Part shown: positions 11,760-59,309 of the stretch, one piece after another | How positions within the stretch are numbered: position 1 is the stretch's first letter | Layout of the letters: every line of letters begins with the position of its first letter | Origin: Alphaproteobacteria bacterium | GTDB lineage: Bacteria; Pseudomonadota; Alphaproteobacteria; UBA6615 | Assembly: GCA_965261975.1 (NCBI GenBank) | Contig: CBDHEC010000017.1 | Span: forward strand, 17,664 to 81,663 | Direction of reading: 5' to 3' | DNA length: 64,000 bases | Program-made: the position numbers and the translations under genes | The notes under the pieces: generated by a model | Told to the model about the DNA's origin: nothing | Seen by the model: only the letters and a program-made list of their open reading frames with translations | Databases searched by the model: none

Positions 11760-12638
11760 TCAGACAATCGGTTGTGCGGCGAAATGTTGCGCCGGCGATA
11801 CAATCGCGTCGCGCGCAGCAACCAGCTCGAGCTCCGTGCCGCCCCGCCGCGCCGTCTCCGAAAGAATAGCGAACACGGTGGCCACGCTGTGTTCCAGCGC
11901 CCCGGGAAGGGAGTTGCGTGCTGCGATGGAGGCTCCAAAGAGGGCGCTGAGCAGGTCCCCCGTACCATGCGGTTCCGACGGGAAAACCAGCCGGGGAGTC
12001 TCGACGCACCAGGCCTTCGAGTCGTCGAATGCGACCACCGCGATAGTCTCCGGATTCAAATCTCGATGGTCGGCGCTGGTCACCATGACGGTGGCACCCG
12101 GTCGCATGTGCGACAAAAGCTTGCGCCCGGCTGCGACAATGTCACTGACCGGCGCCGCCTTCAGTGCACCGGCTTCAAGACCACACAACAAGGACAATTC
12201 GTACAAGTTGGGCGTCGCGATGTCCGCGACGGGAAGCGCTGCCGTTCGGAAATGATCCGGCAGTGCGCCATCCACATACACGCCGGAACCGTCATCTCCC
12301 ATTACGGGATCGCAGCAATAGACCATATCGGGATTTTCGCCCCGGACCTGGCCCACGGCGCGTGTGACCACCGCTGCAAGCGCCGGATTGCCGAGATACC
12401 CGGTGACCATCAGGTCACAATTGGGAAAAACCCCGCGATGACCGAGACCGCGAATCAGGTCCGCGACGGTCTCGGGCGGCAAGACCTGACCGCCAACATC
12501 CGGATAGCCGGCATGGTTTGAGAGGACCGCCGTGGGGACGGACCAGACTTCATGCCCAAGACACTGAAGCGGGAATGTGGCGGCCGAATTGCCGACATGG
12601 CCAAACACCACCTGAGACTGGATCGAAAGAATATGCAT
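11760..12638 (-). CDS. pdxY: Pyridoxal kinase
   Basis: ILSIQSQVVFGHVGNSAA, SNHAGY, CDPVMGD, TPNLYEL and GTGD motifs. Confidence 0.93.
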   Translation of the reverse strand: MHILSIQSQVVFGHVGNSAATFPLQCLGHEVWSVPTAVLSNHAGYPDVGGQVLPPETVADLIRGLGHRGVFPNCDLMVTGYLGNPALAAVVTRAVGQVRGENPDMVYCCDPVMGDDGSGVYVDGALPDHFRTAALPVADIATPNLYELSLLCGLEAGALKAAPVSDIVAAGRKLLSHMRPGATVMVTSADHRDLNPETIAVVAFDDSKAWCVETPRLVFPSEPHGTGDLLSALFGASIAARNSLPGALEHSVATVFAILSETARRGGTELELVAARDAIVSPAQHFAAQPIV

Positions 12639-12721
12639 CGCTGGGTATCGGTTTTGCGCTTGTCGCGGCGCCAGCACAAGAATTCGTTTGACCGACGCGA
12701 AACGCCATTGATACCTGTCGA

Positions 12722-12798
12722 ATATTGATCTGCCTGGATGCGGAGCCCGGCCAAAGACGCCTGAGAAAGAGCCTGGTGCGAAAGCACCGGGCTCTTTT
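12722..12798 (+). ncRNA. Candidate ~75-nt small RNA (boundaries approximate)
   Basis: TTGACC at 12688-12693 upstream (weak -10), no ORF, ends in a plus-oriented intrinsic terminator. Contains a near-copy of 12865-12889. Confidence 0.35.
12766..12798 (+). terminator. Intrinsic terminator with GAAA loop
   Basis: aaaGAGCCTGGTGC-GAAA-GCACCGGGCTCtttt: 11-bp stem whose U-G wobble and GNRA loop favour the plus strand, followed by a T-tract. Confidence 0.8.
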
Positions 12799-12841
12799 CA
12801 TATCCCGATAGGTCTCGCACGACCCGATGCGCAGCTTGCGG

Positions 12842-13745
12842 AAATGAAGAAGGCGCCAGGTGCATGGACGCGGAGCCCGTGACGCCTGACGCCTTCCTCG
12901 ATCTTCCAACCCCGGAGTCACCCCCGGAACTTCAGATCTTTCGGGTCCCACCCGCCGGGCTTGCGCCCCGCCGGCTTCGACCCAATACCCACATCGGCAT
13001 CCAGCTTCTCATCGCTCCGCGCGTGGGACGCACCCCTGGCCGATACGTCGTCCATCGCGCTTCGCTTTTCCGGTATCGTCCGCTTTGACACGTCCCATAC
13101 CGTCCCCGAAGGGATCGAAGCCTAGGTCAGCCGCCGTCCTGCAAACCCGTCCGATTGGTCGCCGCGGCTCCGAAGAACCGGGGTTTCCGACCGGCCGTCG
13201 TCTCGAATTCCTGGCCGGCGAGAGCCTGGATAACGAAACGCTGCCGTCCTTCCTGCGCCCCGAGCCCGCCGAAGCTGGCATCCGGGCGGAGCGCGCGCTC
13301 CGAGGAGCTTGCGCTTCCGGAAAGACCGCTGGATTGCGCAACGGTGCCTTCCTTACCGGCCGACCTCTGGCTGTGTTCTTCCGAGGAAGCACACCTCCGT
13401 CCGGTCTGCCGACCGTGCCCGACCGTTGCATGGTTGCCCATGTATCGGACCGAACACATGAATGAACATCCACCGAGGCGATCGATCCCGAAGGATCATG
13501 TCCATCCGCCGACTTTCCCCCCGACCTGGCGTCACCTTGCGGCAACCCCGTTGATCCGGCGTTCGGTTCCCGTCGATCCGGCACGCCCCCTTGGTGACCG
13601 TTCCGAACCTGTCCGAGCCAACCGCAGAGCGGCTAATCCGACCCGACAGAAACCCGTCGACACGCCAATGCGTGCACGGACATGTTCGACCGCTGCCGCA
13701 AAGGCGGCAATGTCCAATCGGCCCCGGCATCCAGTTTCTTGTGCA
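12842..13745 (-). ncRNA. Candidate large (~900 nt) highly structured non-coding RNA, family not recognised
   Basis: Minus-strand stems capped by c(UUCG)g at 13107-10, 13171-74, 13270-73, 13489-92; c(CUCG)g at 13301-04, 13382-85; GCAA at 12961-64, 13434-37, 13537-40. G-U wobbles mostly favour minus. No credible ORF. A 3' hairpin at 12849-12896 is followed by UUCAUUU. Confidence 0.6.
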
Positions 13746-13757
13746 AAACTCGCCCGG

Positions 13758-13799
13758 TAGATCACAACTCCTCCACAGGTTTTCCACACGCTACCCACG
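13758..13799. promoter_or_regulatory. Four 11-bp-phased DnaA-box-like motifs
   Basis: TAGATCACA (13758), TCCTCCACA (13769), TTTTCCACA (13780; fits TTWTNCACA), CTACCCACG (13791). Confidence 0.45.
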
Positions 13800-13848
13800 A
13801 CACCGACGCTGTGCCCGTCGATCCAAGCTGTTGCGCGCGGCAGTGTCA

Positions 13849-13878
13849 TTGACGAAACGGGGGGCGGGGGTCTAAATC
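13849..13878 (+). promoter_or_regulatory. Putative sigma70 promoter of sdhCDAB
   Basis: TTGACG at 13849-54 and TCTAAATC at 13871-78, resembling the alphaproteobacterial GCTANAWC -10 element. Confidence 0.5.
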
Positions 13879-14000
13879 TGCTTTCTAGAAATACATACGC
13901 ACGTGACCGTCACGAACGACTGTTTGACGGCGCGCGGCACACGGAAAACCACCGGAACCATTTCCCTGGTTCCGGCTTTGCAGCAAAGTCAGGGGGCATC

Positions 14001-14396
14001 ATGGCGACCGACAACAGACCGCTATCGCCGCACCTTCAGGTCTATCGCCCGCAGTTCACATCGGTGCTGTCGATCCTTCATCGCATCACGGGTATCGGCC
14101 TCGCCGTCGGCACACTGCTTTTGGTCTGGTGGCTGATCGCCGCCGCCGCAGGGCCCACGGAATTTGACGCGGTGCAGAAATTCATTGGTTCGGTCATCGG
14201 GCGAATACTGCTGCTCGCCTGGAGCTTCGCGCTCTACTATCACCTCTGCAACGGCATCCGGCATCTGGTCTGGGACGCCGGCAAGGGATTCGAACTGAGT
14301 ACCGCATTCGCTTCGGCCTGGCTGGTGGTCGTCGCCGCGAGCGTTCTCACCGTCATCAGCTGGGTCGCTGGTTACGCCAGCCTCGGAGGGCTCTAG
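14001..14396 (+). CDS. sdhC: Succinate dehydrogenase cytochrome b556 subunit
   Basis: RPLSPHLQVYR, SILHRITG and HLCNGIRHLVWD motifs. Confidence 0.97.
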   Translation: MATDNRPLSPHLQVYRPQFTSVLSILHRITGIGLAVGTLLLVWWLIAAAAGPTEFDAVQKFIGSVIGRILLLAWSFALYYHLCNGIRHLVWDAGKGFELSTAFASAWLVVVAASVLTVISWVAGYASLGGL

Positions 14397-14398
14397 AG

Positions 14399-14776
14399 AT
14401 GAACATGCGCTCCCCCCTGAGCCGCGCACGCGGCCTCGGATCCGCCAAGAGCGGCACCAACCATTGGTGGGCACAGCGACTCACGGCGCTGGCGTTGATC
14501 CCGCTCGTGATCTGGTTCGTCGTGTCCATGATTATTGTCACCGGCGCCGACCATGCAGCGGCCGTCGACTTCATCAGCAGCCCGGTCAACTCGGTTCTGC
14601 TTATCCTCCTGATCGTCGCCACATTCCATCATGGGCAACTCGGCCTGACGGTGGTGATCGAGGACTACATCCACACACGCTGGCTCGAAGTGGGCCTGAT
14701 CATCGCGGTCAAAGGCGCGGCCATTTTCCTTGGCGTCGCCTCTGTCTACGCCGTGATCGCAATCGCATTGAATTAA
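14399..14776 (+). CDS. sdhD: Succinate dehydrogenase membrane anchor subunit
   Basis: [16 protein letters not shown] and [13 protein letters not shown] motifs. Confidence 0.97.
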
Positions 14777-17391: not shown

Positions 17392-18308
17392 CGATCCGGC
17401 GCGATACCAAGACCCTCGACAGGCGCGCGCGCCCAGCCCGGGCTTGCGTTAATCGAATCATCACCGCCGCGGCCCTGTCCGCGGCGGTCGTGTTTTCAGC
17501 CGCTGCCCCGGCCCATGGACAGGGCGAGGCCGAACGTGTTCCCGCCGGCCCCGCCAACATGTTCAAGCCCGGCGCCGCATTCCTGTATTACGCCGGCACC
17601 GCGGACCCGGCCCGGATCGAGGGTCTCAACGCGGCCCTCAACACAATGACCGTGCAAAGCGCGGAAACCGCCGCGGCCATGCAGTCCGTGCGGGCCGGAA
17701 TCGACAAAGGCGTGGCCGACAGCAGCCGGGACAACCTCGCGCGCACCGTGGCGACGAGCATCGAAGGCACCTTTTCCGTAGCGGTGCAGGCTGGCTTTCT
17801 GCAAGCGCTGGCCCGGACCGACCCGGCTTTCGGCCAGGTGCTGCAGACCGCGCAGATGAACATTCGTTTGCCGGACGGTGAGACGATCGATCTGCCAATC
17901 CTGCTGGCCGCCGCCGTGCACTCATTGAGTGTGGTCAGCGCCGGCAAAAGAATGCGCAGCGAAAGCCTGCCGCGCGACCTGGCGGGCAGCTATGAACTGC
18001 AGGCGACAGGCACCTGCTCCGTGCCGGACGGCATGATCCAGATTTCCCAGCAGGATTTCGTCATCGAGGGCGTCAGCGAAGACCGGCTGACCCTCTTCGG
18101 GGCCGTGGGTGACGGAAGCGTCTATCTGTTCTCGAACGAGCAACGCTTCGCCCGGGTCACGGACAATGCCGGCAATACACCGCAAATCGACGTCCCGGAT
18201 ACCCCGTCCGACCTGTTCGAGGCTGAACTGCCGGCAAAGGGCGAACCAATCACTTTCCAAAGCATTGCGCGCGGTGCATGCAGCTTCACCTTGACGCCAG
18301 CTTCATAG
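17388..18308 (+). CDS. Hypothetical exported protein (start uncertain; TTG overlapping sdhB stop is plausible)
   Basis: Signal-peptide-like [22 protein letters not shown], normal GC-rich codon pattern, two Cys in the C-terminal half. No family recognised. Confidence 0.7.
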
Positions 18309-37554: not shown

Positions 37555-38244
37555 CTATTCTGCGGCATTCTTCCGGTCATTCGCCTGTTCCAGGATCGAC
37601 TGCCCGGTTGCCTCCCAATCCTTCATGAATGCCGCGAGCCCCTTATCCGTCAGCGGGTGCTGATAGAGCTGCCGCAGAACACCCGGCGGCAAGGTCGCGA
37701 CATGCGCACCGGCCACCGCGGATTCGACCACATGCGCGGGGCCGCGGATCGACGCGACCAGCACCTCGGTCTCGAAGTTGTCATACTGGGAATAGATTTC
37801 GACGATATCCTCGATCAGGTCGAGGCCACGCAAACCCATGTCGTCGAGACGCCCGACAAACGGTGAAATGAAACTCGCGCCCGCCTTGGCGGCCAGAACA
37901 GCCTGTGCGGCAGAGAAACAAAGGGTCACGTTGACCATGATGTCGCGATCACGCAGCGTCTTGCATGTCTTCAGGCCGTCCGGCGTCAGCGGGACCTTGA
38001 TCGCCACGTTCGACGCGATGGCGGCGAGCACGTCGGCTTCGGCCATCATGGTCTCGAAATCCGGCGCGGTGACCTCCGCGCTAACCGGTCCGGGGACGAC
38101 GTCGCAAATCTCGGCAATGACATCGAGCATGTTGCGCCCAGACTTCGCGATCAGGGACGGGTTCGTGGTCACACCATCCACAAGGCCGCTATCGGCCAGA
38201 TCACGAATTTCCGCCAGATCGGCAGTATCCACAAAAAACTTCAT
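37555..38244 (-). CDS. tal: Transaldolase / fructose-6-phosphate aldolase (TalC family)
   Basis: [37 protein letters not shown] and HPLTDKGL motifs. Confidence 0.93.
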
Positions 38245-38396
38245 TCCCCGAATTCCTTCTTCTGCGCCATGTTTTCGAAGCGCCAGGACTCTATCCCCGC
38301 AGAGACCTGCGCCATGCGTTGGCCCGCTGCGAGTCGCCGGATAAAGTGTACCCGATGCCCCTGACCGACACCACTGCACCCAGACAGGACAACCCG

Positions 38397-40571
38397 ATGG
38401 ACGAGGCCGGCGAAACGGTCAGTGTTTTGCTGCCGCTGCCGGTCGCCGGCCCGTATGACTACAAGGTGCCGCCGGACATGACCCTGCAACCGGGTGACTT
38501 CGTACACGCCCCCCTGGGGTCGCGCGAGATGACCGGCGTGGTATGGGGCCCGGCCATCGGCGACGTGGACGAGAAGAAACTGCGCCCCGTCACCGACCGG
38601 ATCGACACCCGCGCGCTGCCCGAAGAGCTCCGGCGCTTCGTCGACTGGGTCGCCGCCTATACGCTGAGTGCACCCGGCGCCGTGCTGCGGATGGCGCTAC
38701 GCTCGCCGGACGCACTGGCACCGCCGAAGCCTGTCACGGCTTTTCTGGCCGCGACACCGCCCGAAGGGCTGCGCATGACGCCGGCGCGGATCCGGGTTCT
38801 TGATGCATTGCGTGACGGCCCCCCTCTCACCGCCCGCGATCTGGCGAGTGAAGCCGGAGTCACACAGGGTGTGATCAAGGGACTGGCCGATGCCGGTGCC
38901 GTCGAGCGTGTCGAACTTGCGCCGCCGCCCGCCTTCGCCGTCCCGGACATCTCCCGACCGGGCATGGCGCTGTCGGACGACCAGACCCAGGCCGCGACCG
39001 CGCTCTGTCATGATGTGGAGGCCGATAGTTTTTCGGTCACATTGCTGGATGGGGTCACGGGCTCGGGTAAGACGGAAGTCTATTTCGAGGCACTCGCAAC
39101 CGCGCTGGGCGCTGGCAGGCAGGTGTTGGTGCTGTTGCCGGAAATAGCCCTGACGCCGCAATGGCTCGACCGTTTCGAACGACGCTTTGGCGTCGCCCCC
39201 GCGGTCTGGCATTCGGACCTCGGCCAGGTTCGCCGCCGCAAGACCTGGCGCGCTGTGGCCGACGGCGAAGCGCGTGTCGTGGTTGGTGCGCGCTCGGCGC
39301 TTTTCCTGCCCTTTCCCGAACTGGGCCTGATCGTCGTTGATGAAGAGCATGAATCCGCCTTCAAGCAGGAAGACGGGGTGGCCTATCACGGCCGCGACAT
39401 GGCCGTCGTACGCGCCAGGATCGCCGATTGTCCGATCATTGTCGCGTCCGCCACACCCTCCCTGGAAACCCGCGTCAATGTGGCGCGAGAACGCTATAAG
39501 GCGATCGCGCTGCCCGAAAGGTTCGGTCGCTCGGCGCTGCCGACGATCGAGACCATCGATATGCGTGACGGCGACTTGCGCGCCGACCGCTTTCTCTCCG
39601 AACCGCTGGTCGAGGCACTCAAGGCAAACATGGCCGACGGCGAGCAGGCGCTGCTGTTCCTCAACCGCCGCGGCTACGCGCCCCTCACCTTGTGCCGCAC
39701 CTGCGGCCACCGCTTCGCCTGCCCGAGCTGCAGCGCGTGGTTGACGGAGCACCGTTTTCGAAAGCGACTCCAGTGCCATCACTGCGGCTATGAGGTCCCG
39801 ATCCCGACAAATTGCCCCTCCTGCGACAACACCGACACGCTCGTGGCGTGTGGCCCGGGTGTCGAGCGCATCGCCGAAGAGGTCAGAACGATGCTGCCCG
39901 AAGCGCGCATGGAGATCATGACCAGCGACACCATGCGGGGTCCGGAGGCCGCGCAGCGGCTGGTCCGTTCGGTCGAGGACCAGGAGATCGACATCCTGAT
40001 CGGCACCCAGATGGTCGCCAAGGGTCATCATTTCCCGAACCTGACCCTCGTCGGGATCGTCGATGCTGATTTGGGCCTCGCCGGCGGTGACTTGCGTGCG
40101 GCCGAGCGCACCTATCAGGTATTGCAGCAGGTTTCGGGCAGAGCGGGGCGCGCCGAGCGTCCTGGCCGGGTGCTGATTCAAACCTTCCAGCCCGAACATC
40201 CCGTCATGAAAGCACTGGCTTCCGGTGACAGGGATGGTTTCATGGCGCTCGAGACGGATGCACGGCGAATGGGTGACTGGCCGCCATTCGGACGTCTGGC
40301 GGCCATTATTGTGTCCAGCCGGGATCCGCAGGTGGCCGATGAACTTGCACGCGCACTAGCGCGTTGCGCACCCGACGGCCCCGGCGTGCGAGTGCTCGGG
40401 CCGGCACCGGCACCTCTGTCACTGCTGCGCGGCCGGCACCGTCGGCGGCTCTTGCTCAAGGCCGGCCTGGACCAGCAAATTCAGGGTCTTGTCAGGTCCT
40501 GGCTATCGCAGGTCAAGGTTCCTTCCAGCGCGCGGGTGCGGGTGGACATCGATCCCTACAGCTTCCTCTAG
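38397..40571 (+). CDS. priA: Primosomal protein N'
   Basis: [21 protein letters not shown], four CxxC pairs, QVSGRAGR and DIDP motifs. Start could alternatively be 38355. Confidence 0.96.
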
Positions 40572-40769
40572 AGGCGCGGTTTTCGTTGCCGCCGGTTCGC
40601 GCGAACATGCGCGACGAAACGCCGCCATGGCGAACCTCTGAAAACCCGGTGTTTTTCTACAGTTTTTGCGCTGCGGTACGCTTGCCAGCCCCCAAGCCGT
40701 ATGCTACCAAGCGCCTGCCTTATCGGCGGGTCTCTTCCCGTTATCTGGCAGCCGAAAAATATCAATAGA

Positions 40770-40782
40770 TATCAATCGGTTA
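40770..40782 (+). promoter_or_regulatory. IHF consensus site upstream of atpH
   Basis: TATCAATCGGTTA matches WATCAANNNNTTR, with an A-rich 5' flank. Confidence 0.5.
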
Positions 40783-40829
40783 CAACTAATCGCGCAAGCA
40801 AAAACAGGCTCCGGGGGGGCAGTCGCACA

Positions 40830-41387
40830 GTGGCGGCAGATACAAGTGTTGTCGGCGATATTGCAGAACGGTACGGGCTCGCGTTGTACGAGCTCGCGGA
40901 CGAGGCAAAATGCCTCGACGAAGTGGCCGGCGATCTCGCGGACCTGAAACAACTCATCACGGACAGCGAGGAGCTGACGAAGCTCCTGCGTTCCCCGCTG
41001 ATCGACCGCGACGACAAGGCGCGTGCGATGGGGGTGATCCTCGAGCGAGGCGCCGCGAACGAACTCACCCGCCGATTTGTCGGTGTGGCCGCCGGGAACA
41101 ACCGGCTGTTCGCGCTATCCGCGATGATCGAGGCCTATCTGGCCGAACTTGCGCGCCGACGCGGCGAAATCACCGCCGAGGTGACATCAGCCCGCGCGCT
41201 GAATGACGAACAACTGCAGCAGCTCACCGAGAGCCTGCGTGCAAAGTTGGGTGGAAAAATAGCCGTCGAACCGAAAGTGGACGCCTCGCTCATTGGCGGG
41301 CTGGTGGTCCGGGTTGGTTCGCGGATGATCGATGCATCGCTGAAAACAAAGCTTCAGCGCCTGCAATACGCCATGAAGGGAGCGTAG
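40830..41387 (+). CDS. atpH: ATP synthase F1 delta subunit
   Basis: GTG start; IAERYGLAL and LIGGLVVRVGSRMIDASL motifs. Confidence 0.95.
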   Translation: MAADTSVVGDIAERYGLALYELADEAKCLDEVAGDLADLKQLITDSEELTKLLRSPLIDRDDKARAMGVILERGAANELTRRFVGVAAGNNRLFALSAMIEAYLAELARRRGEITAEVTSARALNDEQLQQLTESLRAKLGGKIAVEPKVDASLIGGLVVRVGSRMIDASLKTKLQRLQYAMKGA

Positions 41388-41390
41388 AGG

Positions 41391-42920
<1,530 letters not shown>

Positions 42921-42949
42921 CACCGACCGGACAGGGCAAAGACAAGACG

Positions 42950-43852
42950 ATGGCCAGTCTCAAGGAATTCCGCGTCAGGATCGCTTCGGTGAAGTCGACG
43001 CAGCGTATTACGTCGGCGATGAAGATGGTCGCCGCCGCAAAGCTGCGCCGTGCGCAGGAAGAAGCGATCGCGGCCCGACCCTATTCCGAACGCATGGAAC
43101 GCATGCTGGGGTCGCTCGCGGAAAGCGCCGCGGCATCAGGCAATGCACCGCCCCTGCTCGCCGGCAGCGGCAAGGACAACGTCCATCTGCTCGTGGTCAT
43201 GACCACCGACCGCGGCCTGTGCGGCGGCTTCAACGGCAGCATCACCCGCTGGGCCCGCCAGCGAATTCTTGAACTCCGCGCCGACGGCAAAGAGGTCAAG
43301 ATTCTCATGGTCGGCCGCAAGGGACGCGGCATTCTGCGCTCCGAGTTCGACAGCATGATCATCGACACCCTCGAGGACACGGCGCGTCCCGCGCCCCGCT
43401 TCGAGACCGCGGTTGAGATTGCCCAGCGCGTGCGCACCATGTTCGAGGCGGGCGAAATCGATGTCTGCACGATTGTCTACAACAAGTTCATTTCTGCGCT
43501 GACCCAGGATGTCACGCCACAGCAGCTGATCCCGTTCGCGCTGCCCGAGGCCGACGAGTCCAACGCCGAGGACGCCAACTCGGATATCGCCGGCAACGCG
43601 GCCTATGAATACGAACCCGACGAAAAAGAAATCCTCACGGATTTGCTGCCGCGCAACCTGTCGGTTCAGGTTTTCCGCGCGATGCTCGAATCATTCGCCT
43701 CCGAACAGGGTGCGCGGATGACGGCCATGGACAGCGCCACACGAAACGCGGGCGACATGATCAACCGCTTGACCATCGAGTATAACCGAACACGCCAGGC
43801 GGCGATCACAACAGAACTCATTGAAATCATCTCTGGCGCGGAAGCGCTCTAG
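42950..43852 (+). CDS. atpG: ATP synthase F1 gamma subunit
   Basis: [21 protein letters not shown] and [19 protein letters not shown] motifs. Confidence 0.98.
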
Positions 43853-45309
<1,457 letters not shown>

Positions 45310-59219: not shown

Positions 59220-59309
59220 GGAGGGGTGCCGGAGTGGTTGAACGGGGCAGTCTCGAAAACTGTTGAGCGTGCAAGCGTTCCGAGAGTTCGAATCTCTCTC
59301 CCTCCGCCA
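59220..59309 (+). tRNA. tRNA-Ser (CGA)
   Basis: GGAGGGG/TCCCTCC acceptor stem, anticodon arm GCAGT-CTCGAAA-ACTGT, long variable arm, GTTCGAATC T-loop and encoded CCA. Confidence 0.96.

Follow-up and report, generated by a model that had tools for sequence, protein, structure and literature searches.

Two convergent noncoding RNAs with co-evolving complementarity are predicted beside the sdh operon of uncultured marine Alphaproteobacteria

The locus and its noncoding RNA genes

The window analyzed here is a 64,000-nucleotide (nt) stretch of DNA from an Alphaproteobacteria bacterium (UBA6615), positions 17,664 to 81,663 of the forward strand of contig CBDHEC010000017.1 in assembly GCA_965261975.1. 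Within it, a 1.35-kb gene-free stretch separates a pdxY-like kinase gene from sdhC, and we find evidence there of two convergent noncoding RNA genes, a plus-strand small RNA and a large, structured minus-strand RNA whose terminal hairpin is complementary to the small RNA. Sequence comparisons indicate that both genes are present on these strands, with the structures described below, and that their complementarity has co-evolved. We refer to the source genome assembly (94.6% complete, contamination estimate of 2.8%) as G000, to its contigs by labels beginning with C, to other genomes by labels beginning with G, and to homologous loci by labels beginning with L. The features of the two RNAs, in window coordinates, are as follows.

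12686 to 12715, plus strand: promoter-like block, with TTGACC at 12688 to 12693, a 16-nt spacer whose first part (GACGCGAAAC) is conserved, and GATACC at 12710 to 12715
~12722 to 12800, plus strand: putative small RNA gene of ~78 nt, its 5' end placed from the promoter-like block and its 3' end from the terminator
12735 to 12764, plus strand: copy 1 of a two-part repeat, inside the small RNA gene
12735 to 12749, plus strand: seed segment A (TGGATGCGGAGCCCG), complementary to large-RNA positions 12879 to 12865 (15 bp, one U-G)
12756 to 12764, plus strand: seed segment B (GACGCCTGA), complementary to large-RNA positions 12889 to 12881 (9 bp), reaching into the 5' arm of the hairpin
12766 to 12802, plus strand: Rho-independent terminator with a stem of 13 to 14 bp, a GAAA loop, and a T-run
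12836 to 12898, minus strand: terminator-like 3'-terminal hairpin of the large RNA, with a 12-bp stem (12896 to 12885 with 12860 to 12849), a 24-nt loop, and a U-rich tail (12848 to 12836)
12865 to 12889, plus strand of the DNA: copy 2 of the repeat, which in the minus-strand reading is the loop and the last 5'-arm bases of that hairpin
12899 to 13674, minus strand: body of the large RNA, structured and noncoding, with a predicted 5' end near 13674
13682 to 13710, minus strand: promoter-like pair of the large RNA, with TTGCCG at 13710 to 13705, a variable 17-nt spacer, and GAACAT at 13687 to 13682

Across 26 homologous loci, the stretch lacks a 3-base periodicity of substitutions, and its indel lengths are mostly not multiples of three (326 leave a remainder of 1, 93 a remainder of 2, and 53 a remainder of 0), which together argue that it is noncoding. 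No Pfam family was found for the three longest open reading frames inside it (two minus-strand frames and one plus-strand frame).

A conserved small RNA gene on the plus strand

Conservation of the region from 12683 to 12800 extends to every one of the 11 other genomes in the genus and, beyond it, to most of the remaining genera of the family. An alignment of 28 sequences (A1) shows two conserved segments, a linker that varies in both sequence and length, a stem-loop, and a T-run, and the promoter-like block, the variable linker, and a covarying plus-strand terminator are present in all 28 aligned loci. We take this arrangement, a conserved promoter-like block followed by two kept segments, a variable linker, and a stem-loop with a T-run, as the mark of a small RNA gene. 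Within the small RNA, nothing is conserved besides the seed and the terminator. A covariance model built from A1 (R1) scores 93.9 bits (E value of 2.7e-20) at 12722 to 12800 and, among the 46 genomes of the family, detects a single strong copy in each of 35 (10 of 18 genera).

The terminator is an inverted repeat (12766 to 12779 with 12784 to 12797) followed by TTTTCAT on the plus strand. Its stem is paired in 98.3% of alignment cells across 28 distinct sequences and has two-sided changes at 8 of its 13 pairs; this covariation was reached by 0 of 500 shuffles, and slid partners were paired in 26 to 56% of cells. Twelve of the 28 sequences have a U-G pair at columns 60/69 that would be C-A on the minus strand, and we place the small RNA on the plus strand because of such pairs. 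An earlier note, made from the sequence of the window, had pointed to a plus-oriented terminator at 12766 to 12798 where no plus-strand gene ends, and it had proposed a plus-strand small RNA of ~75 nt. Both proposals are supported: the stem covaries and is followed by a T-run, no plus-strand open reading frame with a family match ends there, and the predicted gene, ~78 nt long, is conserved. A terminator scan listed neither this hairpin nor that of the large RNA.

The same note had placed a TTGACC -35 element at 12688; the hexamer is there and lies within the conserved promoter-like block, with a mean identity of 0.93 over 12683 to 12702 across the 26 loci. The block appears to resemble alphaproteobacterial housekeeping promoters and may serve as the promoter of the small RNA, in which case a plus-strand RNA of ~78 nt would be expressed from 12722 to 12800. 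A promoter scan with an Escherichia coli-type consensus found 0 sites in 12400 to 14300.

A leader-peptide attenuator resembling Thr_leader was considered and rejected. The small RNA region holds an 8-codon frame (MRSPAKDA, 12738 to 12764), and this frame is not conserved, its ATG being lost in L017, L028, L044, and the second clade described below and its phase shifted by changes in linker length; no plus-strand gene lies downstream. The Thr_leader match at the locus (22.7 bits versus a threshold of 55) reflects the terminator alone.

A large structured RNA on the minus strand

That the minus strand encodes a large RNA had also been assumed in the earlier note, and the comparative data uphold it. 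The alignment folds at -368 kcal/mol on the minus strand versus -256 kcal/mol on the plus strand, and a chain of hairpins closed by UUCG and GCAA loops reads correctly only on the minus strand. In an alignment of 25 sequences from at least 8 genera (A2), the consensus structure comprises 143 pairs in 26 helices, with 94.1% of cells paired versus 38 to 49% when partners are slid by 1 to 3 columns. Two-sided changes occur at 81 of the 143 pairs, versus 28 to 44 for slid partners, and at least one such change is found in 20 of the 26 helices; each of the structure measures was reached by 0 of 500 shuffles. Some helices are long range, e.g., columns 588 to 594 with 706 to 712 and columns 789 to 794 with 1039 to 1044.

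In the promoter-like pair upstream of the large RNA, the TTG is invariant, AACAT is at least 90% conserved, and the spacer is variable. This pair (TTGCCG/GAACAT) is the predicted promoter of the large RNA, which would start near 13674 and give a primary transcript of ~830 nt. Measured from an invariant upstream block (13763 to 13788, described below) to the hairpin, most loci span 908 to 961 nt. Two size variants were seen. A complete chromosome (L024) spans 582 nt from block to hairpin and is without the 5' domain (~445 alignment columns of the 5' half), and one group (L015 to L018 and L036) spans ~1105 nt, with two insertions that have their own UUCG hairpins.

The terminal hairpin is the most conserved part of the locus, with a mean identity of 0.91 to 0.97 over 12843 to 12902, and its sequence from 12847 to 12898 folds at -36.5 kcal/mol on the minus strand. 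In the consensus structure (helix 26), 16 of its 20 pairs are the same in every sequence, and a two-sided change is seen at a single pair, in two AT-rich genomes. One stem position forms a U-G pair when read on the minus strand and would be mismatched (A-C) if read on the plus strand.

Neither RNA matched a model in Rfam 15 (4227 models), searched with the window at gathering thresholds, with the locus at E values of ≤10, and with five homologous loci at E values of ≤1. The only match in the window that passes its threshold is a transfer RNA (tRNA) at 59220 to 59306, and the best matches in 12400 to 14300 are terminator look-alikes. ARAGORN found no tRNA or transfer-messenger RNA (tmRNA) in 12000 to 14500. 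We rejected the idea that the large RNA is a divergent housekeeping RNA, as RNase P RNA and an alpha-type tmRNA (C57:186672-187006, 257 bits) are encoded elsewhere in G000. The 6S RNA (RF00013) was not found in the 94.6%-complete G000 assembly, and the large RNA is about five times too long to be that RNA. By these comparisons, the large RNA is an undescribed, predicted structured noncoding RNA of ~0.8 kb. Neither it nor the pair is described in the literature searched, which included parts of PMC5069720 and did not extend to supplements and subscription journals.

As an observation apart, G000 holds two full-length RNase P RNA genes, at C57:205801-206172 and C11:8227-8639 (328 and 284 bits, respectively); the second gene could be contamination or a true copy.

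Presence in environmental RNA libraries

Small shares of the sampled words of the stretch occur in 22 RNA-library runs from 16 studies. Four marine or salt-marsh runs were mapped as contigs only, which show presence in RNA libraries and not level, strand, or ends. Contigs 80 to 99% identical to the window cover parts of 12921 to 13664 in all four runs, among them a 684-nt contig on the large RNA from a library of only 16 million letters. Contigs of two runs end at 13661 to 13664, which is a weak hint only for the 5' end of the large RNA. The contigs have 1-nt indels, and some skip 13048 to 13200, as is expected of a structured RNA with a variable arm. In these four runs, no contig lies on 12400 to 12911 (the small RNA and the terminal hairpin) or on 13680 to 13999, a gap in cover that carries no weight; the uncovered 12400 to 12911 is compatible with a mature RNA of about 12906 to 13664 and with loss of small RNAs from such libraries. 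Contig depth in X2 is up to ~2,757 on the large RNA versus 1.5 to 2.4 on sdhC, depths that cannot rank genes. Seen in part in many ocean and salt-marsh RNA libraries, the large RNA may be a major transcript of these cells.

Complementarity of the small RNA to the terminal hairpin

The link between the two RNAs is a two-part repeat. The pattern TGGAYGCGGAGCCCG, a gap of 1 to 8 nt, and GACGCCTGA has exactly two matches in the 64-kb window, both on the plus strand, and was matched in 0 of 100 dinucleotide-preserving shuffles, in agreement with the near direct repeat of 12735 to 12764 and 12865 to 12889 that the earlier note had described. A separate repeat search paired 12731 to 12749 with 12861 to 12879 at 89% identity, the two being in direct orientation with a spacing of 130 bp. 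Within the hairpin at 12847 to 12898, copy 2 takes up the loop and the final 5'-arm bases, much as the note had said in assigning it to the loop and one arm. A third copy of the motif was considered and set aside: two candidate stretches, 13719 to 13734 and 12995 to 13009, are not conserved in the alignment and are treated as chance. Elsewhere in G000 there are short matches only, the longest being 17 nt. This is an exact copy of the hairpin-loop sequence in the large-RNA sense at C8:27645-27661, deep in long open frames (E value of 0.007), and it is possibly chance or possibly a second site for the small RNA.

Since the large and small RNAs come from opposite strands, a direct repeat in the DNA amounts to complementarity in the RNA. 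The predicted duplex has 15 bp with one U-G (12735 to 12749 with 12879 to 12865) and 9 bp (12756 to 12764 with 12889 to 12881), separated by a 6-nt bulge in the small RNA that faces 1 target nt, and its longest gap-free run of Watson-Crick or G-U pairs at this locus is the 15 nt of segment A. This pairing is the one first put forward from the sequence of the window, and it is kept in homologous loci. Over a 24-position core in 29 loci, the cells divide into 612 Watson-Crick, 54 G-U, and 30 mismatched; a wrong-strand control of the core gave 17 G-U and 67 mismatched cells, and an overlapping set of 28 loci taken from the model matches gave 596 Watson-Crick, 48 G-U, and 28 mismatched cells. Mismatches in the core are located at the edges of the duplex; at inner positions, every one of the 5 classes of transition difference is wobble-compatible. 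Conservation in the small RNA falls on the columns of the two complementary segments; the linker that joins them is 5 to 9 nt long and differs in sequence among loci.

Changes on both sides of the duplex are seen within and between clades. In L033, L034, L069, and L072, copy 2 has changed from A to G and the small RNA has G (G-C), and relatives show the G-U intermediate. A second clade (G013, G015, G018, and G059) has a divergent large RNA beside sdhC and a small RNA gene with the same promoter layout; divergent small-RNA copies with a terminator were read in G013, G018, and G059. In all four genomes, the seed and the loop are both GGACGCGGGGTYCATCG-like. Relative to the main clade, the same positions have changed from C-G to U-A, from G-C to A-U, and from A-U to G-C. 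The gap-free duplex is 18 to 19 nt long in G013, G018, and G059 (18 nt in the latter two), and the run in G015 is 10 nt and then continues past a bulge. Main-clade small RNAs pair poorly with second-clade hairpins, with runs of 9 nt. In G018 and G059, the small RNA gene lies 4 to 5 kb from the hairpin and is inverted, which makes gene conversion an unlikely source of the match. The earlier note had suggested looking for compensatory covariation of the two copies across homologous loci; the complementarity is kept in them, and the second clade has a different seed with a matching loop.

Predicted energies point the same way. The duplex between the 5' part of the small RNA and the hairpin region beats 200 of 200 shuffles in 24 of 25 loci (in L015, 1 of 200 shuffles did as well), with z scores from -3.6 to -7.5, the absolute energies being inflated by GC content. 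The predicted duplex is stronger than the hairpin's own fold. The same test applied to the sdhC leader as a target, which also served as a negative control, was null against shuffles in 13 of 13 loci.

These results have to be weighed against the possibility that the RNAs do not pair functionally and that the two copies stem from a local duplication or are two recognition sites, for DNA or protein, conserved separately. In favor of this view, the copies are direct repeats separated by 130 bp, copy 2 and the stem are more invariant than pairing requires, and with the edges included the event classes number 7 versus 6. However, RNAs transcribed from opposite strands turn the repeat into RNA-level complementarity, the inner differences are wobble-compatible, the linker is free to vary and the seed is not, and seed and loop change together between clades even where they are 4 to 5 kb apart and inverted. 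We give this alternative little credence. From comparative data of this kind, the pairing of the small RNA with the terminal hairpin is probably functional.

Distribution and gene neighborhood

Of the family's 46 genomes, 43 have the large RNA, and these represent 15 of 18 genera. The family is the whole order, as an order-level search gave the same 46 genomes. The large RNA was detected in none of 16 sampled genomes from other families of the class. The exact main-type hairpin pattern occurs in 26 species of 185,579, all of them metagenome-assembled genomes labelled uncultured marine Alphaproteobacteria or Rhodospirillaceae. The small RNA was detected in 38 family genomes altogether, each time together with the large RNA, and the three genomes in which the large RNA is missing have no small RNA either.

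The two genes adjoin each other in all 28 main-clade loci parsed. From the end of the seed to the hairpin, the distance is 61 to 139 nt in 28 loci, compared with the 4 to 5 kb of G018 and G059. A cis-encoded, overlapping antisense RNA was rejected, since the genes do not overlap and a 48-nt gap lies between the two terminators. No small RNA was found in G016 (98% complete) or G058 by the model at E values of ≤1 or by two patterns, and G016 keeps the large RNA with yet another, diverged loop sequence.

These patterns bear on whether the small RNA is a stably paired subunit of the 3' domain of the large RNA, the two forming one RNA or ribonucleoprotein in two pieces. Strict co-occurrence, the co-evolution of the pair together with its adjacency in 28 of 28 main-clade loci, and a predicted duplex that beats the hairpin's own fold would all suit such an arrangement. 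The partner was not found in G016, however, the small RNA gene can be 4 to 5 kb away, and the small RNA is conserved only in its seed and terminator, so that we regard a two-piece RNA as improbable.

On its other side, the large RNA is divergently adjoined by sdhC in all 24 RNA-holding loci tested, the most distant genera included. The pdxY-like gene is a neighbor in only 2 of the 26 loci searched, which are close relatives. This second figure counts against antitermination, in which the small RNA would bind the nascent 5' arm and loop, block the terminator, and allow readthrough to the bidirectional terminator of the small RNA and the pdxY-like gene. The pairing site does include 5'-arm bases, and a second, partly symmetric hairpin does lie downstream. 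Yet conservation does not extend to the downstream gene, G018 and G059 have their small RNA gene elsewhere, the time for binding before the 3' arm is made would be very short, and in 12 of 28 loci a minus-strand reading of the second hairpin contains a C-A mismatch. Of all the alternatives, antitermination strikes us as highly improbable.

A proposed mechanism and points that weigh against it

The reading that we judge narrowly probable as a whole is that two convergent noncoding RNAs come into contact and that the small RNA thereby sets the 3'-end maturation and the level of the large RNA. The large RNA would be transcribed from ~13674 to 12836, towards the small RNA gene and away from sdhCDAB. 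The seed of the small RNA would make first contact with the exposed 24-nt loop, and the contact would spread into the 5' arm and open the terminator stem. Either the duplex of 15 and 9 bp or the loss of the 3' hairpin would then expose the 3' end to nucleases (RNase III-type cleavage or 3' exonucleases), and in this way the small RNA would set the maturation of the 3' end and the amount of the large RNA. That processing or stability of the large RNA is the main effect of the pairing falls, in our estimate, somewhat short of an even chance. A fuller version, a dedicated two-RNA module in which an undescribed, abundant, ornate ~0.8-kb RNA, fixed beside the sdh operon throughout the order, has its 3' end matured or gated by a co-evolving guide small RNA, is offered tentatively and seems to us doubtful.

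The principal competitor is titration, in which the loop of the large RNA would be a decoy that sequesters the small RNA, the real targets of the latter being messenger RNAs (mRNAs) elsewhere, or the reverse. The same complementarity and co-evolution apply to such a sponge, its loop would be exposed and is invariant, contigs of the large RNA in RNA libraries have a high word depth, and G016, which keeps the large RNA with no small RNA detected, suggests that the large RNA has a function of its own. On the other hand, no other target was found, in a comparison in which the sdhC leader was null in 13 of 13 loci and no genome-wide target prediction was made; the one long loop match outside the locus (17 nt, C8:27645-27661) falls deep within long open frames; and the seed covaries with the loop, a change that a seed with many targets would resist. 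We prefer processing over titration, which we consider unlikely, because the seed covaries with one site, the genes are mostly kept together, and no other target was seen.

Several observations weigh against the account of guided 3'-end maturation and, in part, against pairing itself. Expression of the small RNA and both 5' ends are drawn from conservation only, and the E. coli-type promoter scan gave 0 sites. Copy 2 is almost invariant, and variation within the main clade is mostly one-sided. Once the edges of the duplex are included, 7 wobble-compatible transition classes stand against 6 incompatible ones; the strand asymmetry is not significant, and the test is weak alone for this reason. 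Compensation between clades may come down to a handful of changes on a single deep branch, the match between adjacent copies could also stem from gene conversion, and second-clade small RNAs still pair with the main-clade hairpin through G-U pairs, with runs of 19 to 21 nt. The duplex with the small RNA leaves the invariance of the stem unexplained, so that some further constraint must act on it; perhaps the stem has an extra partner, most likely a protein or a nuclease or processing site. Because G016 has the large RNA but yielded no small RNA, the small RNA appears dispensable for the large one. Finally, the data fit cleavage or decay, titration, and a stable complex alike.

Comparison with known RNA systems

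Trans-encoded small RNAs with RNA sponges include GcvB with SroC, and RyhB and RybB with the 3' external transcribed spacer (3'ETS) of a tRNA precursor. The pair described here resembles them in having a short conserved seed, a Rho-independent terminator, and a noncoding partner transcript. It differs in that the site is the terminator-hairpin loop of a 0.8-kb structured RNA, and in that the two genes are tail-to-tail neighbors in most genomes and appear to form a dedicated, co-evolving pair with no known mRNA target. In the loop-targeting antisense RNAs of plasmids (CopA/CopT, RNA I/RNA II, and FinP/traJ), the loops make contact first and a helix then opens the stem. A loop-first contact, proposed here, and a duplex long enough for RNase III are shared with those systems; unlike theirs, the genes here do not overlap (a 48-nt gap, or 4 to 5 kb in G018 and G059) and are chromosomal, and the target is the 3' end of a noncoding RNA rather than an mRNA leader or a primer. 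The small RNA would work like known base-pairing small RNAs and loop-targeting antisense RNAs and, by the Rfam searches, belongs to no described family.

The pairing of trans-activating CRISPR RNA (tracrRNA) with the CRISPR RNA precursor (pre-crRNA) offers another parallel: a small RNA is encoded beside a longer noncoding RNA, the pairing is ~24 nt, and it could guide processing. In contrast, there are no repeats, spacers, or cas genes here, the site is a single one at the 3' end, and processing is a proposal. The two-piece (permuted) tmRNA of Alphaproteobacteria likewise consists of two base-paired RNA pieces, in the same bacterial class, whereas the tmRNA of G000 is encoded elsewhere (C57:186672-187006) and ARAGORN finds none at the locus. 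The large RNA is reminiscent of OLE, GOLLD, and ROOL in its length of several hundred nt, its many covarying helices, its UUCG and GNRA loops, its restriction to one lineage, and its presence in RNA libraries. It differs from them in having no Rfam match, in occurring in another lineage, in its place beside sdhCDAB, and in its association with a dedicated small RNA of its own.

The terminator loop of a large noncoding RNA is an unusual type of target for a small RNA, and a small RNA aimed at such a loop would add a target type to small RNA biology. If true, guided 3' maturation would be a bacterial analogue of processing of the tracrRNA or small nucleolar RNA (snoRNA) type, outside CRISPR and the ribosome. 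New classes of large structured bacterial RNAs are rare, and most come without a partner or an experimental handle. Here, a pairing site delimited at nucleotide resolution and backed by co-evolution allows tests of binding, cleavage, and compensatory mutations to be designed directly. The pair is confined to a single order of uncultured marine bacteria, and its fixed place beside sdhCDAB hints at a link to respiration or central metabolism.

Flanking genes and upstream elements

The genes and conserved elements around the pair are as follows.

11760 to 12640, minus strand: pdxY-like kinase gene (Pfam Phos_pyr_kin, 6.9e-16)
13763 to 13788, minus strand: invariant block (TGTGGAAAACCTGTGGAGGAGTTGTG) upstream of the large RNA, located between its promoter and that of sdhC and containing three TGTG(G/A) repeats at a spacing of ~11 bp
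13849 to 13877, plus strand: sdhC promoter-like site (TTGACG, 17 nt, CTAAAT), conserved in the alignment and divergent from the large RNA
14001 to 14396, plus strand: sdhC (Pfam Sdh_cyt, 1.8e-34), with sdhA next

Most columns of the block at 13763 to 13788 are invariant in 25 of 25 sequences, and a second invariant motif (GAGTTTTGCACA) lies near it at 13740 to 13751. Together they may be a site for a shared regulator or a piece of a longer primary transcript.

A replication origin at the locus was considered and rejected: there is no switch of GC skew near 13 kb, and a single DnaA-box-like site lies here, at 13780 to 13788. GC skew is negative over nearly the whole window and slightly positive only in bins 38001 to 44000. 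Far from the pair, in a window without a GC-skew switch, two perfect sites of the DnaA-box type (TGTGGATAA) lie 291 bp apart on the plus strand, at 2336 to 2344 and 2627 to 2635.

The 5' leader of sdhC contains a conserved hairpin (13951 to 13976) that a scan classed as terminator-like on the minus strand. Its arms differ between loci, which suggests that the sdhC leader is structured.

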